NCBI RefSeq assembly: GCF_036321535.1
Contig: NC_087436.1
Location: 70,558,001-70,622,000 of the forward strand
DNA length: 64,000 nucleotides
From: Camelus dromedarius
Taxonomy: Eukaryota
Direction: 5' to 3'
Position numbers and translations under genes: made by a program. Positions 2,626 to 56,700 of this stretch are shown here, in pieces. Position 1 is the stretch's first letter, and each line of letters begins with the position of its first letter. Below the pieces are notes generated by a model. The model did not search any database. It saw nothing but the letters and a program-made list of their open reading frames with translations, and was not told where the DNA came from.

Positions 2626-3910
2626 AGACATGGACCCTTAGTTCTGAGTGTGTGACTCCACCTAAATTACGTTGGGAAGTTTGGAGGCGTTGTGCCTCCG
2701 GAAATGATTCAGATTTTCGGTGATTTTTGCTTCCTGTAACAGAACTCTGCTTCTGAATGTTTTTACAGCAATTTCTGACTCCCATTTACAATGTCCAGTT
2801 TCCAGACATGATAGGGCTATTCCACCCCCCCCCCCATGAAAAGCTCTCAAACCTTCTAGACTTGTAATAAAAGTTTACATTTGAAAATGCAGGGTGGATA
2901 TTTTTCTGGCTAACATAAAATGAAGAATTCCTTTCTTGGTGAAAACCCCAATTAAGTGGGCTGTTTTATTCCATAGAGAACTAACCCACCAGACTTCTCC
3001 AGCTTAATGTAGTTTCTGCTGTGAGCCCACATTCCCACAGAACACAACAGAACCCTCTTCGGTACTGTCCCTCTGGGTGTTCTGTACTTTTTTCCGTTGA
3101 CTCATGACTTGATTGACCAAGAATATCCTGCTTGAGTCTCAGCATTACTGGAGTTTTAGTTCTACTTCAGGAAGTTCAGGAAAAAAATAAGGAAAGTGGT
3201 TCCAGTGGTAGAGAAAATATCCCCATTTAAGTCTCAGAGAGCCACAGTAGTTATATAAAACCATAAACAGGGGAAGTCTTTATTTACGTGAAGTACAGCC
3301 AACTCTACCACCCTCTTCTTTCACATCGTTTCTCTGCTCTTCCCTTTCCTAAAAGTCAGGACTTTGAATTTTCACTGGCACTTCCAATAGAGAGCACAGG
3401 TTAAAGACTGTGCAAAGGGTAGAATGATCAGGACTGAGAAAGGCATATGAACAGGGAATGCAGAGAATATTCTTTTTAAAAAGAGTACTCCTAAGTGTGA
3501 GGTCATTAGGATACTGACATTCAGTGACATAGCAGTAGATGTAATGAAATATTTGGTATTAGTGAAGAAGTCTGTGCTTCTTATTAAGAATTTTTAGGTG
3601 GCTAGGCATTAGCTAATGGATTCATGAAGCAAACCAGTAAAAGAATAAGTCATGGTCCAGCTTTGGTGATGGCCCAAAGCCAGGAAGAAAGGCTATCGCT
3701 ACCCTCCACTGCTCCAAACCCTTTATTTCTTTGAGTCTGTGATGTCTGCAAGCCTGGTTATTGGCTTTCAGTTTCCCCTCAGTGAATATTCAGGTGGGCC
3801 ACTTTGGGTTTCATCACTGTTATAAGAACACATGTTAAAAGATCACATCCCCAATATGATCCACGTTTTACTGCCAAACCTGGGTGAAAAGGAAAGATGT
3901 CACAAGTTTC

Positions 3911-3940
3911 AACAAAGCCAACAAGCCAACAAGCCAACAA
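3911..3940. repeat. Short tandem repeat, about 3.5 copies of AACAAGCC
   Basis: aacaaagccaacaagccaacaagccaacaa read directly. Confidence 0.8.
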
Positions 3941-12620: not shown

Positions 12621-14183
12621 TTTTGGTTGCATGACCATCTCTCTCCAAATTTTTTTTGGTCTCGGGTTTCCTTTTTAAAGAAAGAAAAGTATTGTATGAT
12701 GGGAAGATCTAAACTGAATCAGAAAACCTGGCTTAATGCCGGAGGCAGAGCGGGTAGCCTCTAACTGGGGCTTACCTGTGAGCCGGTCTCCCCTCTCATG
12801 CTCTTTTTGCAGCTATGTAACAAGGGATCGAGCCTGGTCCTTCCTGAGATTCCTTTCAGCTCTGTGATCCTCCAGAGCTGGTGCTTTCTTTCCCCGTTGG
12901 TAGTGTCTGTGGGATTTTGAACACTAAAGGCTTAATTTCAGTGTAGCTGTGAAATATTACTGCCTTCACTTTCCTTGCAAAGTTTTGTAGTTTATGCTTA
13001 AAGTGATCCCTGTAATGTGCACCATGTTTATGGAAACTTAATGAAGGGCATAAACCACACAGGTGTTTTCACCTGTAAATCACCTGACTGGTGATTTCCA
13101 GGCATCAGTCACAGAGCCGGCTGTGCATATACACGGATTGGCTGGAGATTACAAGGAGGGGGAGAATAGAGGGAGGCCCTGCCAGGAAGGGTAGATAAGA
13201 AACATTTTAATCCACAAGCCTCGAATTAGAGTAGGCGTTTGATAACACTTGCAGCTGATAGGCTGGGGCTGTTTGTTTATTTTTATGATCTTGTAAAATG
13301 GACTTCCCACATTGATTAAGACTTAAAGGGAAAGTGGACGGATTGTGTTTGGTAGCACTTAATTATTTTACTGTGGAACAAGGGGTTAATTATAATTACA
13401 GGGTCCATTCTGAGAGTTTTACTGAGTGGGGTTTCTGTAATTAAAAATGCTCAGAGCTAAAGGCCACTCTCAAACCAAAACATTCCTATGGGAGAAACTC
13501 TTCCTGCCTTGCTCAGGCTCTCTACTAAGTGGTCCAGTGTTATGTGACATTTACGGCATCTGTTGTCAGTGAGGCAATGTGATGGGAAGTCCTGGATTCA
13601 GCCTCTGCTTGGCTCCCAGGTAGCCGACTGTGTACAGTGTAAATCGTCAGCTTCTAGCTATGGGCTTTGAGACCAGTTCTGTGAGTGCTTGTTAGAAAGA
13701 CGGACTTCTGAGAGGCGCCATCATGCCCAAGCAAAGCTCCTTGAACTGCTGTCAATAATATTGTAATGACTTTGCATGGTGACAGACAGTTACTAGACTT
13801 ACCACGGTGAACAGTTCATAACATATATAAATGCCAGTGGGAAGAGATGGGAGTGGTTTGGAGCTGCTGTTATCCTATCAGTCCCCATCAGTTTTCCCAT
13901 CAGACTTTTGGAAAAGAAGAGCTTTTGTTTTCTTCTCCACCTTTGTATACAGAGAAGTTTGCCCGAGAGGAAGATACTGACGTGTGCTTGATGCACCCAT
14001 GCGCCTCCAATAGTGGGCCCTGGATGCGTTGTTCTGGTTCTATGCCGGGGGCAAAAGCTCTACCTGCACATCGTGAGCTGTTGTCCTGCCGTTGAATACC
14101 TTGCACAGATTCTGTGATATTTTGTCCTGAGCCCCATTCTGAACAGAGGAAATGTCGACTTGTGATGTGACATTAGAAATTTT

Positions 14184-14693
14184 TCAGAAAAGATTTTTTT
14201 AAGGCTGTTTTATTTTATTATTTTTCATTGAAACATAGTTGGCATACAATGTATTGATTTCAGGTGTACAACATAGTGAATTGGCATTTATATACATTAT
14301 GAGCCGATCACTACTGAAAGTCTAATAATTATCTGTCACCATACAAAGTTAATAAAATATCATTGACAGTATTCCCTGCACTGTACGTTACATCTCATGA
14401 CTTACTTATTTTACAACTGGAATTTTGTGCCCATTAATCCCCTTCACCCATTTTGCCCACCCTGTTACCTCCTCCCCTCTGGTGACCGCCAGTTTGTTCT
14501 CTGTATCTATGGGTCTGTTTCTGTTTTGTTTGTTCATTTGTTTTGTAGTTTCCACATATAAGTGGAATAATTTGTTATTCTTTTTCTGTCTGACTTATTT
14601 CACTTAGTGTAATACCCTCTAGATCCATCCATGTTGTTACAAATGGCAAGATTTCATTCTTTTTTATGGCTGAGTAATACTCCATTGTGTATG

Positions 14694-16302: not shown

Positions 16303-16482
16303 AGATGATTGTTGACCATCAGATTGAGACAGGCCTGTTGAAACCCGACCTTAAGGATAAGGTGACCTATACTTTGCTCCGGAAGCACCGGCATCAAACC
16401 AAGAAGTCCAACCTCCGCTCCCTGGCTGACATTGGGAAGACAGTCTCCAGTGCAAGTAGGATGTTTACCAACCCTGATAATG
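16303..16482 (+). CDS. SLC4A4: SLC4A4 internal coding exon (probably exon 6): (E)[59 protein letters not shown](G)
   Basis: Long T-rich tract then tatcAG (16301-16302); donor G|GTAATG at 16483. 180 nt, phase 1-1. Joins the previous exon as G|AG = Glu. Peptide recognisable as NBCe1. Confidence 0.97.
16456..16482 (+). other. SLC4A4: Cassette I: 27-nt segment removed by an internal alternative 5' splice site (9 aa, RMFTNPDNG)
   Basis: GCAA|GTAGGA at 16455/16456 lies exactly 27 nt upstream of the main donor, in the same phase. Splicing to 53295 gives A|GT = Ser and deletes RMFTNPDNG. This matches the known NBCe1-D/-E variants lacking cassette I. Confidence 0.85.
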
Positions 16483-36214: not shown

Positions 36215-37125
36215 AGTAGTCAAGATAGGCTGGGTTTTGCTACAGTGACAACTAGCCCTGTTACTCCAAGAGAGGAAGGCCTCAGTTCTTGTCTTGCCCA
36301 AAAGAGAAGAATTCAGACGGGAGACAAAGGCATTGTGTAGTTAAAGATTTCATTAGGAAAGCAAAAGCACACCTGTAAGAGCAGGAGATGGGCTGATCCA
36401 AGAGAGAATGGCAGCCTTGGTCTTTCTTGGTCCCTCCTGTCTTATACCCTCACTTAGAGACGGTCTCTTGATTGATTGACGGCTCTATCCCCTGGAGTGC
36501 TTCGTCATGCCCGTCCCCCTTTGCACATGTCCTTACCTGTGATGCAGACAGAAAAGCCCGTGAAGGGGGAGCCTACACTGCAATGCTAATTACATTACAA
36601 TGAGCACTGGGTCTTGTCTGTTTGGGTTCTTGTCACTGCCACGCATTCACGGCAATCCAGTTCTAACTGGTTTCTTGCTGGCACTCTTTTAGAGGAAGTA
36701 AAGCCCCCATCTTCCGGACCACCCTCTCCCCTGCACCTCATCTACCTGGTGCCTCCACTTATTTAATTGCCTAACAATCCCAAACATCTCAGTTCACACC
36801 ACAGAGGTTTCTTTCTCATACTATTTCATGTTTATTGTGGAAGTGCAGGGAGCTGTGCTCATCACCGTTAGGCAGGATCCAGGCTGGTGGAAGCCTTATC
36901 TGGGTTCATGCTTCCACAGTCATTGTACCATGAAGAAGAGTTTTGGTGACTCACAGGTTGCCTTGATAACTTCTGCCCAGCAATGACACATTCTTTCACT
37001 TACATTTCATTTGCCAAAATGAATCATATATCCACACCTAACTCCAAAGAACTGTTATCCTACCATGTGCCCAAAGGGTGGAATTTCAGAAACATTTGGC
37101 AGACAACACCAATGACTACCGTCCA
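36215..37125 (-). mobile_element. Old MLT1 (K/L-like) MaLR LTR, interrupted by a younger LTR
   Basis: tagtcaagataggctgggttttgctacagtgacaac | cccaaacatctcagt...ggatccaggctg...ttcacttacatttcatttgccaaa...tcctaccatgtgccca. Confidence 0.65.
36259..36776 (-). mobile_element. ERV solo LTR (518 bp), probably ERV1 class
   Basis: TGTTA...TAACA terminal inverted repeat; flanks agccc / atccc; cleanly splits an MLT1 element. Strand inferred from the antisense U5-like start and TATA-like cttata. Confidence 0.8.
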
Positions 37126-38700: not shown

Positions 38701-39597
38701 TGGACTCATTCATCCACCCAGCTCTTGCTATGGGTAAATTATTTGCTAATCATGCACTGTCAGTCACACTTGTATCTCCTTTGTCCCCACTAGGGTGTAA
38801 TGGACAAGATATGCACTTATCATCTTTAGGAACCTAGTTAATCTGAAAGCAAATAAGAAAGGAAAGAATATGTAGCAATCTGCTTAGCCAGAATGTGTGG
38901 TATCCATTTGCCTGAGACAAACCTTCTGAACAATAGGTAGTTTCATTTTTGTTTTTGACTATTTGGTACTCTTCTCAAATTCATCTATATATATTTCCTT
39001 ATTTGTATGACTTAGTTTTCTTTGACTTTTTTTTTTTTTTTTTTTTGGTGAGGGGTGCTGGCGGTGTGTAGGGCTGTTAACGGGCCATGAGTTGTGGTTC
39101 TTCTTGCATAGATTGGGGTTCTTTTGGAGAAAACTGTGATTTATTTCTTACTCAGGAGCTAATGTATTGCCTGATACACAGACACTTTGTGAATATTTGT
39201 TGATTAATTGAACCCTTAACCTGAAAATGAGAGAAAAGACTGAAAAGAGAGGTAATATGCAAACCTCAAGCAGGAATGGTTTTTGAATTTGTTAGATCAT
39301 AGTCTTCATCCCCAGCCTAGCCAGCCTCTCTGGCATGGGGGAGCTCTGCTGCTTTTCTGTGGCTGCTAATAGTGGTAGAATTTGGGAGTTGGATTCCTTG
39401 GCTAGGGCCTCCGTTTCTTGCTCACCAGATCTTTCTGTCCATGGTTGAGATAACACTACTAAGGCAACTTCAGCTACTACCAGCTGTCATTTATTCAACC
39501 AAGTGCTGTCCCATTTAATCCCCACAAAACATCCCATGAAGTAATAAGCATCCCCGACCTTTTGTTACAGATGAAATCACTGAGGCTCAGTGAGGTT

Positions 39598-40622
39598 ATG
39601 CTACCACAGTACTTGAGGGCTGTTCACAAATTCTGCAGTTCTCTCTTTTTTTCTGGGCATATATGAATACCCTCCTCCTCACCCACATGAAGTTCAGTGG
39701 ACCACATGACTTCCTTTGGCCAATGATACATGAGAACTGATGGATATCATTCCCAGGGAAAGCTTCAAGAGCAAGTATGTGCTTCACTAGTTTCTTTTCT
39801 CTCAAACCATCAGTACGTCTGTTACCGAGTCCAAACTCATTCTGCTCGCCACACAACAGGCCAGTAAATTGAGAGACGAGGTGTTGGGGCAAGGAATAAT
39901 GACTTTATTTGGAAAGCCGGTAGACAGAGAAGATGACAGACTAACGTTCTGGAGAACCATCTTCCCCAAGTCAGAAATCCGGCTCCTATTATAGGGGAGA
40001 GGGTGTGGTTGGTTGTCCAGACTTACTGATGTCAGAATCCTTTGTTCTTGCAGCTGTCCATGTAGGTCAGGTGAATGACCGCAAACACTCCTCCTGCCAG
40101 ACAGGCACGGTTACAGTCATAGAACCACCTCAGATTCTCATGGCTTAAAACAAAACTGGTTCACTGTAGGTCCATGTAGGTCAGGTCATGATGTTCCTGT
40201 AAACCTCCAATAAGACAAATGTTATTCTCTGTTCTGCAACTTTTTATCTCTGTATGAATGGAAAGGTGTTACACCCTTAAAGGTCAGAGTCTTGAGAGTG
40301 GGCCATCCTGTATATTTCAGGCTACAGGCAACACTCTTTTACAAAAGGTGCAGAACCAGCATGTAGAGCTAAGCACAGGAAGTAGAGCACAGGGTTAGAG
40401 CTAAAGAAGCAGATCTAATAGGGAGTTAGAGTTGTTCTTCCCTAGTGCATGTCTAGTGAAGGCTGCTCCATGCATTTTGGTCCTGGTCCAAGGACAGAGA
40501 GGTAGAAGCAAAACGCCAGCAAATCCATATGCACATTATTATCCTGAGGGAGAAGTGAACCAGTTTTGTTTTAAGCCATGAGAATCTGAGGTGGTTCTAT
40601 GACTGTAACCGTGCCTGTCTGG
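39598..40622 (+). mobile_element. MLT1I/J-like MaLR LTR split by an ERV1 LTR
   Basis: gaccacatgacttcctttggccaatga...gaaagcttcaagagc on the left; gttttgttttaagccatgagaatctgaggtggtt on the right. Confidence 0.7.
39820..40449 (-). mobile_element. ERV1 solo LTR, MER41-like cetartiodactyl family (copy 1), carrying a 114-nt secondary insertion
   Basis: TG...CA ends; 4-bp TSD cgtc / tgtc (CpG decay); antisense polyA signal tttatt near 39904; colinear similarity to 44090-44647. Confidence 0.88.
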
Positions 40623-40647
40623 CAGGAGGAGTGTTTGCGGTCATTCA
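40072..40647. repeat. Perfect 94-bp inverted repeat (arms 40072-40165 and 40554-40647, 388-nt spacer)
   Basis: Base-by-base comparison shows arm 1 equals the reverse complement of arm 2 at 94/94 positions. Confidence 0.97.
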
Positions 40648-43600
40648 GTGAATGGGGCACCGGGGTTTGAACTCAGGTTTGCAGACTCCAGATGACATGG
40701 TTCCTTTTGATTTCCTCTCTTCTTCTCATTCTCTCTGCCCTCGGGTCTCCCTGCTTTTAGCCACAGTTAGTGCTCTTGTCTGCTGACAAGAGGTATGGAC
40801 ACTGATGACTCAGAGTTTTGCTGTTTCAAGTTAGAAAATGAAATTCCTAGTGTTTCTCAATGAGAGGCCACAAGTCAGCATTCAGAAGGGTGATTTTCTA
40901 GGATGGTTCTACTCTCTGAGGCCCATTCTTACCACCTCCAGGGAACAGCTGGAGCACACGGAGCACACAGATGGTTCTGGGCCATGCTCAGCTCTTGCCT
41001 CAGAAAGCCATGCACTGTGATGGGTTCTGCAAGGGTAACCATGGTTACAAATCAAAGAGCAGTCTTGTTAGGGGAATGTCTTGGAGAGACTAATATCAGC
41101 ATCCTTTTTGAGGAGGAGGAACAGGATAAATCCAATTAGAATGATGAATTTTTCCCTCAGTAAAAGTCTTCCTTTAAAAATCGATTCTTGTGGCACACAC
41201 TTAAGCTGGGCCTGGATTTTAGGATTGCTGTAGGTTGTCAAGGTTGAATCATTTCCCCAATTTCCAAAAGACATCTTTGAATAAATTTTGTCTCTGTTTC
41301 TAGTGAAGTGTGTAGAGCCTGAAAGAAAGGGGCATTTCCTCTTAACCAGCTAGGGGCCTAGGCTGTGTAGGTTGTTATTACAATTTATACTAATTTCAGC
41401 GATCCTTGTGATTACTGTCTTAAGTAAGAATGATTATTATCACCTTGAATTGGGAATGTCCCTTCCCCTTTTAGTGGTGATAGTTTTATTATATCCAGTT
41501 GCAGTGATAGAGTTTTGAAGTGTTATATTAATTTATTCAAATGGCCAATTCATTCATTCACTTAAATATTTTTAAGTACCATGCTGTGGCTAGTGCTCAG
41601 CTGGTCCTGGGAAAATATAATGAGCAAGGCAGACACCTATTTCAGAGACCTACCAGGTAGACTTGTTATACCAAGGGGAGAGATGTTTGTGAGAAGCTGG
41701 TTCTCTTGAGCAGAGTGGGAAGTGCTTGTGGAGAAGAGTGGGTCACACTGAAGGTGGAGAATGAGGACCTGGAGACCACCCAGGAGGTGATCAGATAGAG
41801 AAACGCCCGCCTCGGCCATCGGAGTATTGATTAGCGGAATTGGAGAAAGGGCGTCATAGTTGGTTCATGAGAGCTGGCTTATCACAAACACAAAGAGGAA
41901 AGGAAACTTTGCTTTGAGGTTTCAAAGAACAGAACCTGGCCCTGTAGGTGAGCATTTTAAGGAATAAGATATTGACTTGGACTCCCGATGTTTTAGATAA
42001 GGATTTGAATGTAGTTTTTATTTTCATGATTCAATGATTCATGAATTTCAGTGATTTTTGAGAAGGATCAATGACTAATCCAGGTTCGGGCCCTGCTGGC
42101 AGGGATGGATGGAGTCCCATCGGTCCTGTATGGATCCAGGGCTTTCTCATCAAGGGACCTTTGTTTACCAGCTTCTTGGGAGGGAGGGAGGGCTGCAGGG
42201 ACCAATTCCCCAGGGCTGGAGAATTGTAAAGGGTAAAGCAAGTGCTTCTGCTTATGAAAATCCTTAGTTAGGCCTGGAGACATAGGAGAATGTACATTCT
42301 AAGAAGTTCTGTGTAGTTAAGTGAAAGCCAGCTCTTTCTAAGCAGATGTGTGCTTTGGTTGGCATCTCCTAATCTCTTGGTCCATCCAGATGCTACAACT
42401 TACCTAGAAAACTGAGGCAGTTTTCTCCATGTGAGAATGAGCTCTATTACAGTACAACAGATCATTTCATTTAGTGGCAAGTTTCCTGTCATCAAAAGTA
42501 TAGAAGCCAACCTCAGGAGACTAGCTCTGTCTGTTGTTAGAGGAGAAAAACTGCTTGGGATAAAAGTTGGTTGTGTTCTCGGTGTCCTTTAACTCTGTGA
42601 CTCTCCGAGCCTCAGCTCTAATAACATACCCAGCCTTCCAGACTATCTACCCTGTGGGATATTTAAACTTATTATACTCTCTATATTATCTTCCTGCTCA
42701 AGAGATAATGTGTAACTTGTGAGAAATTTCTAGTAGTACTGTGCTGGAGGAATTTCTGAAGCTAACATTTTGATGCTGGTTCAGATTATTACTTACACGG
42801 TTTCTTTCTCTTCCTCTGCTTTTTTTCCCCTCTTCATCTTGGTTCAGCAGAAAATGGATTTTCTAGAAAGTACCTTTGCCCACTAATTTAGGCAATCTTT
42901 AAACAGTCTAACTAGACCCGGTGAAGTATTCTTAGAGTCTCTGCATCTTCTGTTGTTTTGCAAACCTTCATGTATTTTACCACTGTCTTTTTTCCCATCC
43001 AGTCCACACTTCAGAAGTAAATATAGAAAAGCATATATTGCCTTCAAATCAGAATGACAGGTGCTAGAATAAATTCAGATCACATTGTCCTCAGCAAACA
43101 TTAGCGATTACCTAAAGAACTTCTTATAATATACATAGGTAAGTTAGGTACCTATTACACAGGTTTGTCAACTAATTACTAATGACCTCTGCACTCAGTA
43201 GGACATCCAACACTTTTGCTCAAAGCTCTCTGACTTTTGTTTGCCTGAAGTCACCGCATAGCCTCAGTGTGATGAGTAAATAGCTGCCTCTGAGCCTCGG
43301 TCCTCACTTCTTGAGTCAGCTCAGATAATTTCAGCTCCCCAATTCAACCTCCCAGTTCTCTGAACTCACCTCTATAGGCTGGAAAATTGCAAATGGTAAG
43401 ATCCTATCATGGCAATTGTAGTTCACGGTTTTCTAAAGATCTTGAATTCAGAGAAGATTTATGCATGTGATTATACGCCAAAGGGAAAGAGAAGAAACTA
43501 ACGTTGAACATCTGTGCAGGACACTTGCTCGTGCGTTTCCTTGCTTAATCCTTACAGCAGTCCTGTAAGGGATGATTATTTTATTTCATAAAGTTTTCTT

Positions 43601-44089: not shown

Positions 44090-44647
44090 TGCTGCCACTC
44101 CAAACTCATGCTGCTGGGTGTGCAGCAAACCAGTAAGTTGAGAGACAAGGTGTTGGGGCAAGGAATAGCAGCTTTATTCAGGAAGCCAACACACAGAGAA
44201 GATAGGGAACCAGTGTTCCAAAGAACCATCTTACCTGAGTTAGAGTTCAGACTTCTTTTATTCTAAAAGGGAAGTGGGTGTGGTTGGTTGTTGCAGACCT
44301 CTTGGTGCTGGCCAAACTCTGGAGGGGATGTGGTAATCCTTTGTTCTTACAGCTGTCCACATAGGTCTGGTCAGGATGTCCCTGTAAACCTTCAGCAAGA
44401 CAAATGTTATTTTCTGTTCTGCAACATTTTATCTCTACATGAATGAAAAGTGTTAAGCTTTTGAAAGTCCAGCCTGGGGGGCAGAGCCTTGACATTGCTA
44501 TTATGTACACTTCAGGCTATAGGCAACGTTCTTTACCTGTTTGACTAGACAAAGGTGCAGAGCCAGCATGACTAAGCACAGGCAACAGAGCACAAAGCTT
44601 AGAGGAACAGACCCAATATGGCATCAGATTTCTTCTTCTCTGTTATA
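44090..44647 (-). mobile_element. ERV1 solo LTR, same family as 39820-40449 (copy 2)
   Basis: Shares ccaaactca..., ttgagagac.aggtgttggggcaaggaata, agacaaatgttatt, aaaggtgcaga and ctaagcacagg with copy 1. TSD cgcc (44086-44089) / cacc (44648-44651). Confidence 0.88.
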
Positions 44648-45559
44648 CACCCTACTTTCGCTCTGAGTTGGACACTCAAATGTGGAGACTTTTCAGGACC
44701 ACTTAGGTGACAGGGACATGATGGGCCCAGAGATCCTTGCTCCCTCCTTTCCTGGAGGCTGCTGTCTGAGCTGTGGGTGATCTGTGACCACTGGTTGCCC
44801 AATGTCTATCAGCTAGTTGGATGTGCATCAGCAAGACCATGAGGAGTTACTGCACGAGGAAGCCAATTTAACTAGCTTTTCTCCGGGTCACAGTTTGTGA
44901 GCCGTAAATCAGGAGCAGTTAGGAGTGGCTACATTTGTAGCTGGAGGCCCAGAGAGTGTGTCTGTTACTCTTTTAAAACTTTATATTTATCTCTGTGTCC
45001 ATATATAATACTAATAAACTGAATCTACATCAGCAGTGGTATTGACATTCATATCTATATATGTATTTGGCTGCAGATGTAGGATCTGTACGTCTGTTAA
45101 ATGGCTTACTTTTATGGACAACCTTTTTTTTCCCCCTGCATATGCTTTTCATATACAAGGGATTTGGGTGATTAAAACTATTGAGGTGAATTTGATAATT
45201 CTGACAGAGCCTTCAGGAAAAATTTCCCTTGCCATAATTTAAAAAAACAGTGTAAATATTATTTCATGGAGCATGTTTTTAGAACTACTTAAAAATTGAC
45301 TTTAAACTCTTTTAAAATCTTGATCTCCATGTTTATATTAAAATTTTGATTTAATTAAAACTCCCAAGCTTGCTACTAGTCTGTAATGTTTCAGCTTAAT
45401 CTCAGGGACTTAAAAATAATAAAAGTACTTTAATTAATTAACTTTATTATATGATAAATAGACATATGTATTATGTTTTTATTAAAGTATTATGTGCAAA
45501 TGGGTATGAAATTGAAGAGCACAGAAGGACTTCTAATGAAGAGCAAACTCCTTTGCTTC

Positions 45560-50933: not shown

Positions 50934-53294
50934 ATTCAGAACATTGGGAAGCATTTGTCTCTGGTTCAGGGTGTTAGAGGGGAGGGGTGGAGAGTTTGTT
51001 AGGGAGGGAGGTGGGAAGAGATGCGAGAATGCTGATCATCTTGCTTAAGATCTACCCAGAAGTGTTGACTGCTGAATTCTTTCAGTGTATTACAAAGTTA
51101 AACATCAGTGAAGGTGTTAATATTACTTCTATTAATGAGAATCAGATAAGGTCGGGAGGGACAATAGATCTGATTATTTCTTAACACAGGCCTCCTCTTC
51201 CCCATCTGGTTCCTGCATCTGCCTTGACCCCATGCTGTTCTCTGCTCCCTCCATGGAGTACAAATACAGATAGCTACGCTATAACTGTCTTTCAGAAATG
51301 AGAGAAATATTGAGACTGTATATGAGGTTTCTTGGAAAAGTTGTGACATCGGTCAGGATTACCATTATAGTGGAAACCTTATTCATTTGGCTTCTACCTA
51401 TTCAGATTTTGCAGCAGTTAGGACAGTGCTTGGGTTGACATGTAGCACTGCAGTATTTACAAAGAATTTCCAAAGCAAATCAGTGAACTTAGACTATTGC
51501 CCAGGAAATTTAAAGTACTTAGTGAAAAGCTGCTTTCAAATTCATTTCAGTGTTGCTGCTTACATAGAATTGATTTGATAATTAGAAATCAGTCTTATCT
51601 ATTCATTTACATAAACTGCTATTAATTTATGGTTAGGATTACTAAGACTTCATTGCTTTAAGAAAATACAGTTCAGATTTCTTTACTTATTCAAGGAGAA
51701 TTTTCACCCACTTAATCTGAAAAACTGACTTTGTTTTTTAATGTAAAGTACAAAATTGTATGCACTCATCATCTCACATTAGCTTCAAGCCCAGCGTTAT
51801 TTGGGGGCATTCATGTTTGTATCTGGTGCCTTTTGTATTGAGTGGACACTAGAAACCTGGTAGGCGGTTCAGAAAAGAAAATGTGGCTTTCAAAGGGGTC
51901 CTTTTAATTTTGCTCATAGAGCAGTTTTTCAGATGTTACTTTCCTTTGAAAAATGCCCTGTACTCAAATTTTCCTGAAATAAAACATCTCACCAGGTAAA
52001 AGGTTTAGGAGAGCTAGGCCACGCTTGTTCAATGAAATGCAGCAGAGTGGAAAATATTCTGTTTTGCCAGCTCAAGAAAATTGATCTAGTAGTTAAAAAC
52101 AATTATATTATTTAAAGAACTGCTGTTACATGGACATTAAATTATTAGGGGTTGATTTTAGTCTTTTGTAAAATTATGTGTTGAGGTTTCGGTCTGAAGG
52201 AAGAGAAGTCTGTAATCTAAAGAATTATGTGGAAACAAGTGTGAAGCTATGTTCGAATTTGGGTGCTTGTTTTTTCAACCCTTGTCCTCTTGATGCGAAG
52301 ACCAGCCTGAGTCAGATCTCTGAGGATTAGATGATGGACACATTACTCAGCGTCCTCCAGGGGCAGGTCAAACACCCTGGCTTTGAAAAGTTACTTTTTT
52401 GCTTAGTGAGCCTAGAAATTTCAGGTCCAACTGCAGAATGAAAGCTCAGTATTCTGTTTATTAACCAGTCTGCTTGAAAATAGTCTCTCCTTTTCCTCGA
52501 TCTCCTTCCTCTGTGCTCTCAAATAACCATGTCGAAGTCACGGGATGGATTGCCCATGGACTTTACCTACAGCAGCTCCACTGCCGGGGAGCTTTGTTCC
52601 TATGGAGTATTCCTGATGAAATCCATCCCTGGCCTTGGATAAGAAGTTTGGCATGTTAAGGGGGAAAGAAGGGGTACCTTAATTTTAGTCTGGCACATGG
52701 GAACACAGGAAGTAAGGGGGGCTGCGATAACACTGCTGTGAGGCAAAGAGTGGGGATTCTGAATCAGGTGTCCACTAACAAGAAATACTGTTGATCAAAG
52801 TGTTAGCCAGAGGATGGAATGCAGATGGCTCTGGGGGTCGATCTGAGCAAGGGGTGTCCTGGGAAGGACTGCAGAGGTCCCGGCCTTTTACTGTGGCGCG
52901 GGCTCTTCAGACGAGAGGAAAGAGCCCATCTCTCTGGGCAATAGAAATGGGTAGACCAGGATGTCTATGAAGGGCTAAAACAAGAGGCAAACCAGAACTA
53001 GGAGTAAATTTATTTTTAATGCATATTGTTTTACATGTTTCTTTTAAAGTTTAACTTATCTTGAAATAGAACCAGGAAGCAAGACTTAAACAAGGTGTAT
53101 GAGATTTTATGCATTTTTCATTTAACCGTGTTAGCACTCTACCCTAACTTTCCAACACTTCAGGAGACTCCTAATGTAGCTGAAGCACCATCCCCATCCC
53201 CATCCTCATCTGCTAGTCTTCACAAAGTGTGCAGCCAGAGCCTGTGTGTTTTTGATGAGAAGTCGTTTATGAGGCTTCACTTCTGTTTTTCCAG

Positions 53295-53371
53295 GTAGCC
53301 CCGCCATGACTCACAGGAATCTGACTTCTTCCAGTCTGAATGACATTTCTGATAAACCGGAGAAAGACCAG
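53295..53371 (+). CDS. SLC4A4: SLC4A4 internal coding exon (probably exon 7): (G)[25 protein letters not shown]
   Basis: Acceptor ttctgtttttccAG (53293-53294); donor CAG|GTAAGC at 53372. 77 nt, phase 1 to 0. Joins exon 16303-16482 as G|GT = Gly. Not in the ORF track. Confidence 0.97.
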
Positions 53372-53705: not shown

Positions 53706-56700
53706 AGGGCTAGGAAATGTTGGAAATTGCTAACGTTGGGGGGACACCTCAGGCAAAGCTATTGTGTATTTGTTTGTCTATTAAAAGACATATTAAGTAG
53801 CCTATTTGAAATGGAAAACAATTAGGTTTTGAATCTCAATTTGCTTTCCTTTAAAAAGCATGTGGTAGAAACTGGGCCACTTTCCCAGTTGGGTTGGGTA
53901 TCTGGGCTTGACATTAGCAGAAAATGGGGAGTAGGTATAAATTTTGCACTTTATATTAAAAGATAAAATGAGTTATTTGCACTAATTGGCTGAAAATTCT
54001 ACCTGAATAAATAAAGAAATCTGAATTATATATCTGTAAGGCAGTGAAGCCTTATTTTCCACAGTGTTCCTCTTTAACTGACAGAGGTTTTTAGACATTG
54101 ATGAATTCTAAAAAGCACAGGAAAGGTGAAATTATGTTCCTTCTTGTAAGGTGGCTTTTGATTCTTTCTTCCTTCTTCTTCTCACCAGCAGCCCCCTAAT
54201 GGGGCCTTCATCATCTCAGAACAGATTGCTAGAAGAGCCTTTGGAATTAATCCTGTTTCCATTTTCTCCCAACTCAATACACTTTTCATATTATTGCCCT
54301 TATAACTCTCTCCTGGATCAAAAGTGTGTAATGGCTTCTTACCAAGTTACATTCAGAATTCCCTGACTTTTTAAGATTCTCTGACATCTGGTGTTATCTT
54401 TCCCATCTTAACTTAAATGTGTTTCCCAGAAGAGAAACTCTGCTTTGTTTCTGCCTAATTACCTACCCCTTCTGCACTGAGATTAATTCTTGCCTTCTAA
54501 ATGCTGGTAGTGATGGCTCTCTCCTACCACTGGCCTACCTGATGATGTGGGAGAAGATCACTTAAATACTGGCTACACTGGTACATTCATACCAGTCGTG
54601 AAAAGGGAAAACTCAGTCCCCTAGGACTTGTTGAGAATTTCCCTCAAAACAATTTTGTACATTTTGGCTCTATACAGTATTCACCAAGCACCATTCCGAT
54701 TATGAGGTTGGCCAGGGTCCTTGATATTGGATAAGGCAGAGTTAGAAATACCTGGCTGACACTTCTTCTGAAATGTCTGGAAGGCTTCTTTTATTGCGGA
54801 CAGTTCTTTTGTCAGTAGCAGGTGGTAAATTCTGAGAAAGATTTCTTACCTTCTTGGGTGTCTTCGAATCTGGGCGTATGCCAAAGAAATTTGATGGCTC
54901 AAGATGTGTATTACATAAGGTTGTGATTCCAGTGTTAGAAGAAATAGGTTGGAACATGATGATTTGGGGTGTTGATTTTGCTGTGAAACCTATGTGATTT
55001 GGTCCTTAAAACCAGACTCTGTTGCCTGTCACTGATGCATCACATTCATAGAGATTCATGTGAAGATGAAACCGGGAAGACTCAGTTCAAGAGTTTTGTT
55101 CTTTTTGTTTTCAAAACCAGAGAGTGAGGTTGATGAATATATCATTGTAAGAGCAACTGTCCATCTTCGTTTATCTAATATAATAGTCATAGTTAACCCC
55201 CAAAGAGGACGAAACTCTGTTCTTTGTTCCCACCAAGAAATTTGAAGAGAAGCTTTGTAACTGATCCATGATCTCCTCTATAACCAAAGGTAGAGTATAA
55301 ATTCCAACTAATATTTCCAGTTTCTATACTTACTATCTTAGTGACTTCAGATACAAAAGCTCTGGGATCATTTTAGGGCGAGAAGAAGAAAATGGACTTG
55401 CTAAGAAGATGAAGCCAGGGCAAAAACCACAATAAACCCAGGCTTTTATTTTTTAACCTGCTTTTTCTGTGTTTGGGTGGGAAAAAAAGGTTGCCAGGCT
55501 CAAATTTGTTTTGAAAAAGCTTTTACAATTAATTAGCCAGTGTCCTGGAAATGATCTTGGCAGTAAAGTCAAACTTGTTCTGTATGCTTTTCCAAGTTGG
55601 CCCCAGAAAAACTTCCATCCAACTGGAACTGAAGTTTTCTGATTGACTGATTATCCTGCCTGGATACAATTCGAACAGTTGTGACGGTGCTTGGTGACTT
55701 CCCGGGGCTGTGTAACTTCCCTGCAGCACAAGAGACAGGTTTAATGTTCAGAGTTCTGATGAGGAGCAGTTTTCTTTCTGACAGCTACATAGTGACAAAA
55801 TTCGAAGGCATATTTTTTATGAGATTCTGTTTTAGGGAAACAGAAGAAACAAATCTGCGGACTGCACTTTCTCTCTCTGGCTCTGCCAAGCCTATGCACT
55901 GATGATTTCAGTAGCGGCTGCTTTATTGAGAAATAGCTCAAAATAGTTAACAGCAGAAGAAAAAGCATGGCCAGAATTGAGGTGACTCAGTGCTTCAACA
56001 ATATTCCATCTTGGATGTTGTATTTATTAAGCAGAAAAACACCTGGGGAGAAGATTTAAACATACATATATATATAGCTGGAGCTCATATACTTGTAAAT
56101 CGACATAAATGATCTCCTCTATTTTGTTGCTATGGAGGGTTTTCCTTTCCTTCATTATCCAGTTACCTTCCCCAATTACCTTAGATTGATTTGTTTTTCT
56201 ATCTCCTTTTATTCCTTTTCTGTTCTTTAAAATATGTTAGAACTGCCATGGATGCTTATCAAATGCGGTGGGTTAGTTCTAATTTTCTTGTGAGTGTGAG
56301 ATCAGCTGTGAGGATTAGGAAGTCTTTTTTTTTAAAATCATTTTACCTCTTAGCTTTAACTCTGGAGGAAATAACCGTGCTCAGTGCTGCAATGACTTTA
56401 AAAGGGCTTGTTTTGTTTTTTTGTTTTCGTTTTTCCAGGATTATCAATAATGCAAAAAGCTCTCACAATTACGTGACCAACCTTAAGTGAAATTGCAGTC
56501 TCTAGACTGCAGGGGATGCAGTCGATGTAGAAATCCCTCGCAGATTGTTAGAGAGACACTTCCAGCTCACATGACTTTGTAACATCTTATCTGGCGATGG
56601 CTTCCATGATGCTTGCTATTTAGCTAGCTTATCTGAGAACCCATCCCTACTTCTCCTGGTAGAATCTGGCCTCAGGTTAGTTTCTAAAGTGTGTTGTAAT

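Follow-up and report, generated by a model that had tools for sequence, protein, structure and literature searches.

How did a perfect reverse complement of a neighbouring segment come to lie inside an LTR in an intron of SLC4A4, and does it have any consequence there? We examined this locus within a 64-kb window, the term used here for the whole stretch of camel DNA that was analysed. The structure is real in the assembly and most likely also in the animal. We consider it very probable that it records a single germline copying accident without evidence of function.

Structure of the inverted copy

Comparison of the window with itself revealed that, in the assembled sequence, positions 40072-40165 are the reverse complement of positions 40554-40647 at 94 of 94 positions, with the two arms separated by 388 nt (self-BLAST E = 1.6e-42). 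The match stops at both edges, with no further pairing outward on either side. The inverted pair is the longest of the five exact non-low-complexity repeats of at least 18 nt in the window, the runner-up being 25 nt long. The inserted copy occupies 40073-40165 on the minus strand (93 nt, or 94 nt including the T shared at 40072) and reproduces 40554-40646. The donor (40554-40647, plus strand) is intact and is located beyond the LTR, with 388 nt separating it from the insert upstream.

The insert is bracketed by two identical 17-mers on the plus strand, the first at 40056-40072 and the second at 40170-40186. Between the inverted copy and the second 17-mer lies a short stutter (40165-40172, plus strand), an exact 8-nt copy of 40061-40068 that contributes 4 extra nucleotides (40166-40169). 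The net gain is therefore 93 + 4 + 17 = 114 bp; no bases were lost, and sequence comparison identified a local template for every added base. Neither a poly(A) tail nor a T-rich endonuclease nick site was found at the insert ends. The event site contained no tandem array, and a single unrelated 9-mer dimer was detected within 39500-41000. The sequence-only reading of this DNA had described a 94/94 inverted duplication, a 17-bp flanking duplication, a stutter at 40165-40172, a net gain of 114 nt and the lack of a poly(A) tail, and each of these observations was reproduced.

No other long perfect repeat occurs in the 64 kb, and the arms show zero mismatches; both would also be expected if an inverted copy had entered the consensus through a fold-back chimeric read or through faulty gap filling. 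A hairpin loop holds one end of the donor, a context that favours fold-back chimeras, and the structure is known here from assembled sequence alone. Such an assembly or library artefact is nevertheless unlikely: three junctions leading back to the same template, with 17 bp duplicated and a stutter that is itself templated, would be hard to obtain from one chimeric read, the window contains zero N and no other such structure, and the anatomy fits a class that has been validated with long reads in humans. A narrow combined-term literature query on chimeric artefacts matched no paper.

Host LTR and polarity of the event

The insert lies within a solo LTR (39820-40449; 630 bp including the insert) that has TG...CA ends and is flanked by its own 4-bp duplication with one CpG-type change. 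A paralogous solo LTR without the insert (44090-44649), in the same orientation as the host LTR, served as the outgroup. The two LTRs showed 79% identity over aligned columns. The paralogous LTR aligned with the left flank of the insert up to 44371 and with the right flank from 44355, and this overlap of the flank alignments indicates that it holds the 17-mer once and contains no insert. Scores against the same LTR were 80 and 143 for the flanks and only 22 for the insert. Because the paralogous LTR has a single 17-mer and no insert, 40073-40165 would be the new copy and the donor presumably the native one, with the polarity taken from a 79%-identical paralogue and not from an orthologue.

The flanks of the LTR at 44090-44649 showed no clear duplication. 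Treatment of the two LTRs as parts of one provirus was rejected on the basis of their 79% identity and the private 4-bp flanking duplication of the first. The LTR that had previously been called a sister LTR thus does read through without the insert, but it is an independent paralogue and not a partner in one provirus.

Junctions and probable copying mechanism

Three junctions were identified, which from left to right lie at 40072/73, 40165/66 and 40169/70 and carry microhomologies of 1, 1 and 3 nt. The second junction adds an imperfect match of 5 of 7 nt, and imperfect junction matches have been said to characterise replicative repair (PMC6902434). Perfect microhomology of only 1 nt at two of the three junctions counts against the copying-accident reading. 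The 4 extra bases do not match the adjacent sequence, which rules out a later simple tandem duplication or slippage; as they need the original 17-mer as a template, one event with iterative priming is favoured, and we infer that all three junctions arose in it.

The arrangement can be accounted for by a polymerase that, while extending through the LTR, would leave its template at 40072, where 1 nt is common with the donor, and copy a 94-nt opposite-strand segment located about 460 bp ahead. It would then return first to 40061, 11 nt behind the leaving point, copy 7 nt, and slip back a second time to where the 17-mer begins, sharing 3 nt there, so that synthesis would resume at what is now the second 17-mer, 17 nt back from the leaving point. 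The stutter would thus represent an aborted first return. For a nascent plus strand, this would be an inter-strand switch with the opposite parental strand as template, giving the order 4-1-3-2. In the mirror order, a broken right-hand end would fold back onto its own strand or prime on the sister chromatid, the latter having been proposed for inverted templated insertions (PMC13269935). The left-to-right and mirror orders would give an identical product, and the sequence by itself fits both. The 17-bp duplication could likewise stem from re-priming behind the leaving point (PMC7954356) or from fill-in at a staggered break (PMC8355091), both of which fit.

A different origin for the 17-mer pair would be a target-site duplication, left when a free 94-nt fragment (sister-chromatid DNA or reverse-transcribed RNA) was captured at a staggered break, whether by end joining or by the L1 machinery. 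The size range of L1 target-site duplications includes 17 bp, and the 1-nt junction overlaps are compatible with ligation. Small tandem duplications arise at staggered breaks (PMC8355091), and inverted templated insertions have been traced to a broken sister chromatid (PMC13269935). Against such a capture, which we regard as decidedly unlikely, the insert has neither the poly(A) nor the T-rich nick site of an L1-mediated insertion, a source just 388 nt away is not favoured by RNA capture, and the stutter requires synthesis on the target itself. A combined literature query on polymorphic templated insertions that bear target-site duplications matched no paper.

The copying accident thus remains the preferred reading. 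As a matter of judgement, replication-coupled switching would account for it with roughly even probability, polymerase theta acting at a staggered break is possible with a somewhat lower one, and any other enzyme is improbable. The tilt towards replication-coupled switching rests on a length and a reach beyond the usual range of polymerase theta. An earlier proposal had invoked a template switch or polymerase theta-type repair: its core, a local copy of the opposite strand that is neither a retrotransposon nor a DNA transposon, agrees with our results, while the choice between its two options is one that the sequence does not decide.

Comparison with known mutation classes

Among 229 validated human inversion sites, 54% were inverted duplications (Sudmant 2015, PMC4617611). 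These were nearly all shorter than 1 kb, lay within 5 kb of their source and were typically not retrotransposed (PMC4617611). The camel insertion resembles them in being a reversed copy of less than 1 kb (94 bp), at most 5 kb from an intact source (388 nt) and free of retrotransposition marks, the 17-bp flanking duplication alone being ambiguous in this respect. It differs in being known from one non-human assembly and in its small size of 94 bp.

Template switches of the '4 before 1' type produce one large insertion together with a direct repeat (Walker 2021, PMC7954356). The short-range switches reported had a median length of 12 nt and a maximum of 128 nt (apes) within a 100-nt search window (PMC7954356), and each person has been described as carrying 3,049-3,934 template-switch-like patterns with lengths of up to 318 bp (Loytynoja 2022, 10.1101/2021.11.26.470150). 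The present event shares with this type the copying of the opposite strand, a return behind the leaving point and the order 4-1-3-2. Its reverse-complement segment exceeds the minimum of 8 nt, with the ancestral state taken from the paralogue, and the 17-mer supplies the direct repeat between the return and leaving points. In contrast, 94 nt were copied against the median of 12, the template lies about 460 nt away and not within about 100 nt, and there are three switches instead of two. The event works like a template switch, outside the published operational set.

Insertions made by polymerase theta are described as 1-25 nt long (PMC7407515). Compared with its iTINS products (PMC13269935, PMC7407515), the insertion showed the same patchwork of nearby sequence with flank matches of at least 6 bp, an inverted copy, microhomologies of 1-3 nt and iterative priming. 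TINS, however, are deletions accompanied by a mostly short insertion, whereas here there is no deletion, 17 bp are duplicated instead and the copy is 94 nt long. Tandem duplication at a staggered break (Schimmel 2021, PMC8355091) would explain the 17-bp duplication, but not the 97 nt between the two copies.

The insertion is an ordinary member of mutation classes already familiar in human genomes. In its present state it has little importance beyond illustrating a common mutation class cleanly, in a form whose every part can be parsed. On its own it settles no open question, since a single fossil event does not reveal which polymerase produced it.

Donor and donor ends

The donor may represent the 3'-terminal part of an MLT1-type element that continues into a MIR. 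Its left boundary gave a best pairwise score of 136 against old repeats (null 114-139; 174 tiles), and its right boundary a best score of 115 (null 95-105; 174 tiles), with a match that looks low-complexity; neither score is convincing. A MIR profile built from 12 MIR-like copies in the window, chosen by eye, matched 39506-39600 (E 2e-4) and nothing at 40560-40760. Upstream in the same intron, 36270-36765 was read by eye as what we take to be an LTR-like element nested in an MLT1-like copy.

Both donor ends have a 6-nt direct repeat in common (40554-40559 and 40647-40652), and the copied segment starts with one copy of this repeat and ends exactly on the opening base of the following one. Given this shared end repeat, the tools applied leave room for the donor itself being an older insertion. 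The right end of the donor (40647) also lies in the loop of a small DNA hairpin (40638-40662) with a 6-bp perfect palindrome core and a folding energy of about -5 kcal/mol. A 6-bp stem near either end was found in 877 of 63,500 random 94-mers (background 1.4%); 232 had a 6-nt match at the two ends, and 8 of the 63,500 showed the stem and the match together. The hairpin is weak, as 12 and 4 of 200 shuffles folded equally well. The hairpin and the 6-nt repeat are only leads, being post hoc and involving overlapping bases.

Age of the insertion

With zero mismatches over 110 duplicated positions, divergence is capped at about 0.014 substitutions per site (95% upper bound). This corresponds to 4-6 My at 2.2-2.5e-9 per year and to 10-14 My at 1e-9, the rates being assumed and not camelid-derived. 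No per-year camelid mutation rate was found in the literature, and the available text of PMC12337305 declines to state one. The same source gives 0.001 substitutions per site as the prior mean for the root of Camelus (PMC12337305), a divergence at which the probability of no mismatch is 0.80. For the split of Old World from New World camelids about 16.3 My ago (PMC12127551), zero mismatches would have a probability of 0.0004 under a yearly rate of 2.2e-9 and of 0.03 under one of 1e-9.

The event thus appears young relative to the surrounding repeats. Under the assumed rates, the identity of the arms caps its age only at about 4-6 My, which leaves ample room for fixation of the allele. A previous description of the insertion as young and perhaps polymorphic was too strong: it is supported in so far as the event seems younger than the repeats around it, but zero mismatches are compatible with 4-6 My and nothing shows segregation. 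If the insert does segregate, it could serve as a presence/absence marker. Among the matches listed in a literature search on SLC4A4 and camel structural variation, no title concerned this locus, and the available portion of the main text of PMC12127551 does not mention SLC4A4.

The SLC4A4 intron and the predicted helix

Three plus-strand exons in the window matched residues 87-139, 141-199 and 201-225 of human NBCe1 (SLC4A4, chain 6caa_A). These ranges are near-contiguous, indicating that no coding exon is missing between the matched exons. SLC4A4 is a bicarbonate transporter gene of kidney and pancreas. The event lies in its 36.8-kb intron (16483-53294, plus strand) between exons 16303-16482 and 53295-53371, with the upstream exon 23.6 kb and the downstream exon 12.6 kb away.

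On the transcribed strand, the two arms were predicted to form a 94-bp helix with a mean pair probability of 0.998 in a 1.1-kb context (z = -15.6; none of 20 shuffles as stable). At -190 kcal/mol, the predicted duplex was the most stable of four inverted pairs compared (the others being -83, -123 and -155), and its arms contain 50 adenosines. The 94-bp duplex proposed in the sequence-only reading is thus borne out as a predicted stable helix, should the intron be transcribed. A long, stable duplex on the transcribed strand is what ADAR-edited intronic dsRNA would call for, and ADAR editing of the helix where SLC4A4 is transcribed is plausible and would leave the mRNA unaffected. The arrangement is like that of intronic inverted Alu pairs (PMC11263572), in which two close, opposite-facing copies pair in the pre-mRNA; unlike these, it is a single locus of 94 bp, perfectly paired and without a dispersed family.

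The left junction creates a donor-like GT at 40071. By a crude U1-pairing count, which is not a MaxEntScan score, this site scored 7.5, a value reached by 48 of 2151 intronic GT sites, and most of it would be paired inside the helix. A stronger new splice donor was not supported, as the site at 40185 scored 8. Given the distances of 23.6 and 12.6 kb to the exons and the lack of a stronger splice donor by this count, the insert is probably neutral.

A selected role would require that the helix alters splicing, elongation or RNA turnover of SLC4A4, or that conversion keeps the arms identical. Intronic inverted repeats can affect splicing (PMC11263572), and the pair probability, the 50 adenosines and the rank among the four pairs are in keeping with such a role. 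Yet the two arms share a single intron, enclose no exon and are more than 12 kb away from the nearest one, Rfam returned no family at the event site, identical arms allow no covariation, and the high stability of a fresh copy is trivial; a functional element is extremely unlikely.

It is also very unlikely that a segregating allele gives its carriers a perfect, heavily edited 94-bp dsRNA that measurably shifts SLC4A4 splicing or expression. Were this the case, the locus would offer a natural within-species test of one newborn intronic duplex, and the hairpin-loop end and 6-nt donor repeats would suggest a structure-guided start/stop rule for such copies. The locus would gain in importance if carriers and non-carriers exist, as heterozygotes would show directly whether the duplex is edited and whether it affects SLC4A4 output.

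The arms had also been proposed to mediate inversion of the 388-nt spacer, which would move no exon. This possibility is weak, as efficient recombination has been reported for lengths of 134-232 bp (mitotic) and 300-500 bp (meiotic), well above 94 bp, though shorter cases exist for close repeats (PMC2583991).

Other features in the window

A second inverted pair (51640-51795 and 53895-54060) brackets the 77-nt SLC4A4 exon at 53295-53371. It is about 155 nt long with about 78% identity, is old and has a predicted duplex energy of -123 kcal/mol; it has no other copy in the window and resembles no recognised repeat. Pairing of its arms could loop out or circularise the exon. The previous intron contains an inverted pair (13749-13836 and 14282-14369) of 88 nt with 80% identity and a spacing of 445 nt, which we take to be L1-like fragments.

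The sole Rfam match in the window was tRNA-like (RF00005; 17713-17784; 44.9 bits). It is followed by a short simple-repeat tail, and we assume it to be a tRNA-derived SINE and not a tRNA gene. The 3' end of the exon upstream of the event (16455-16482) contains, 27 nt ahead of the donor, an internal GT that presumably matches the 9-residue alternative cassette of NBCe1.
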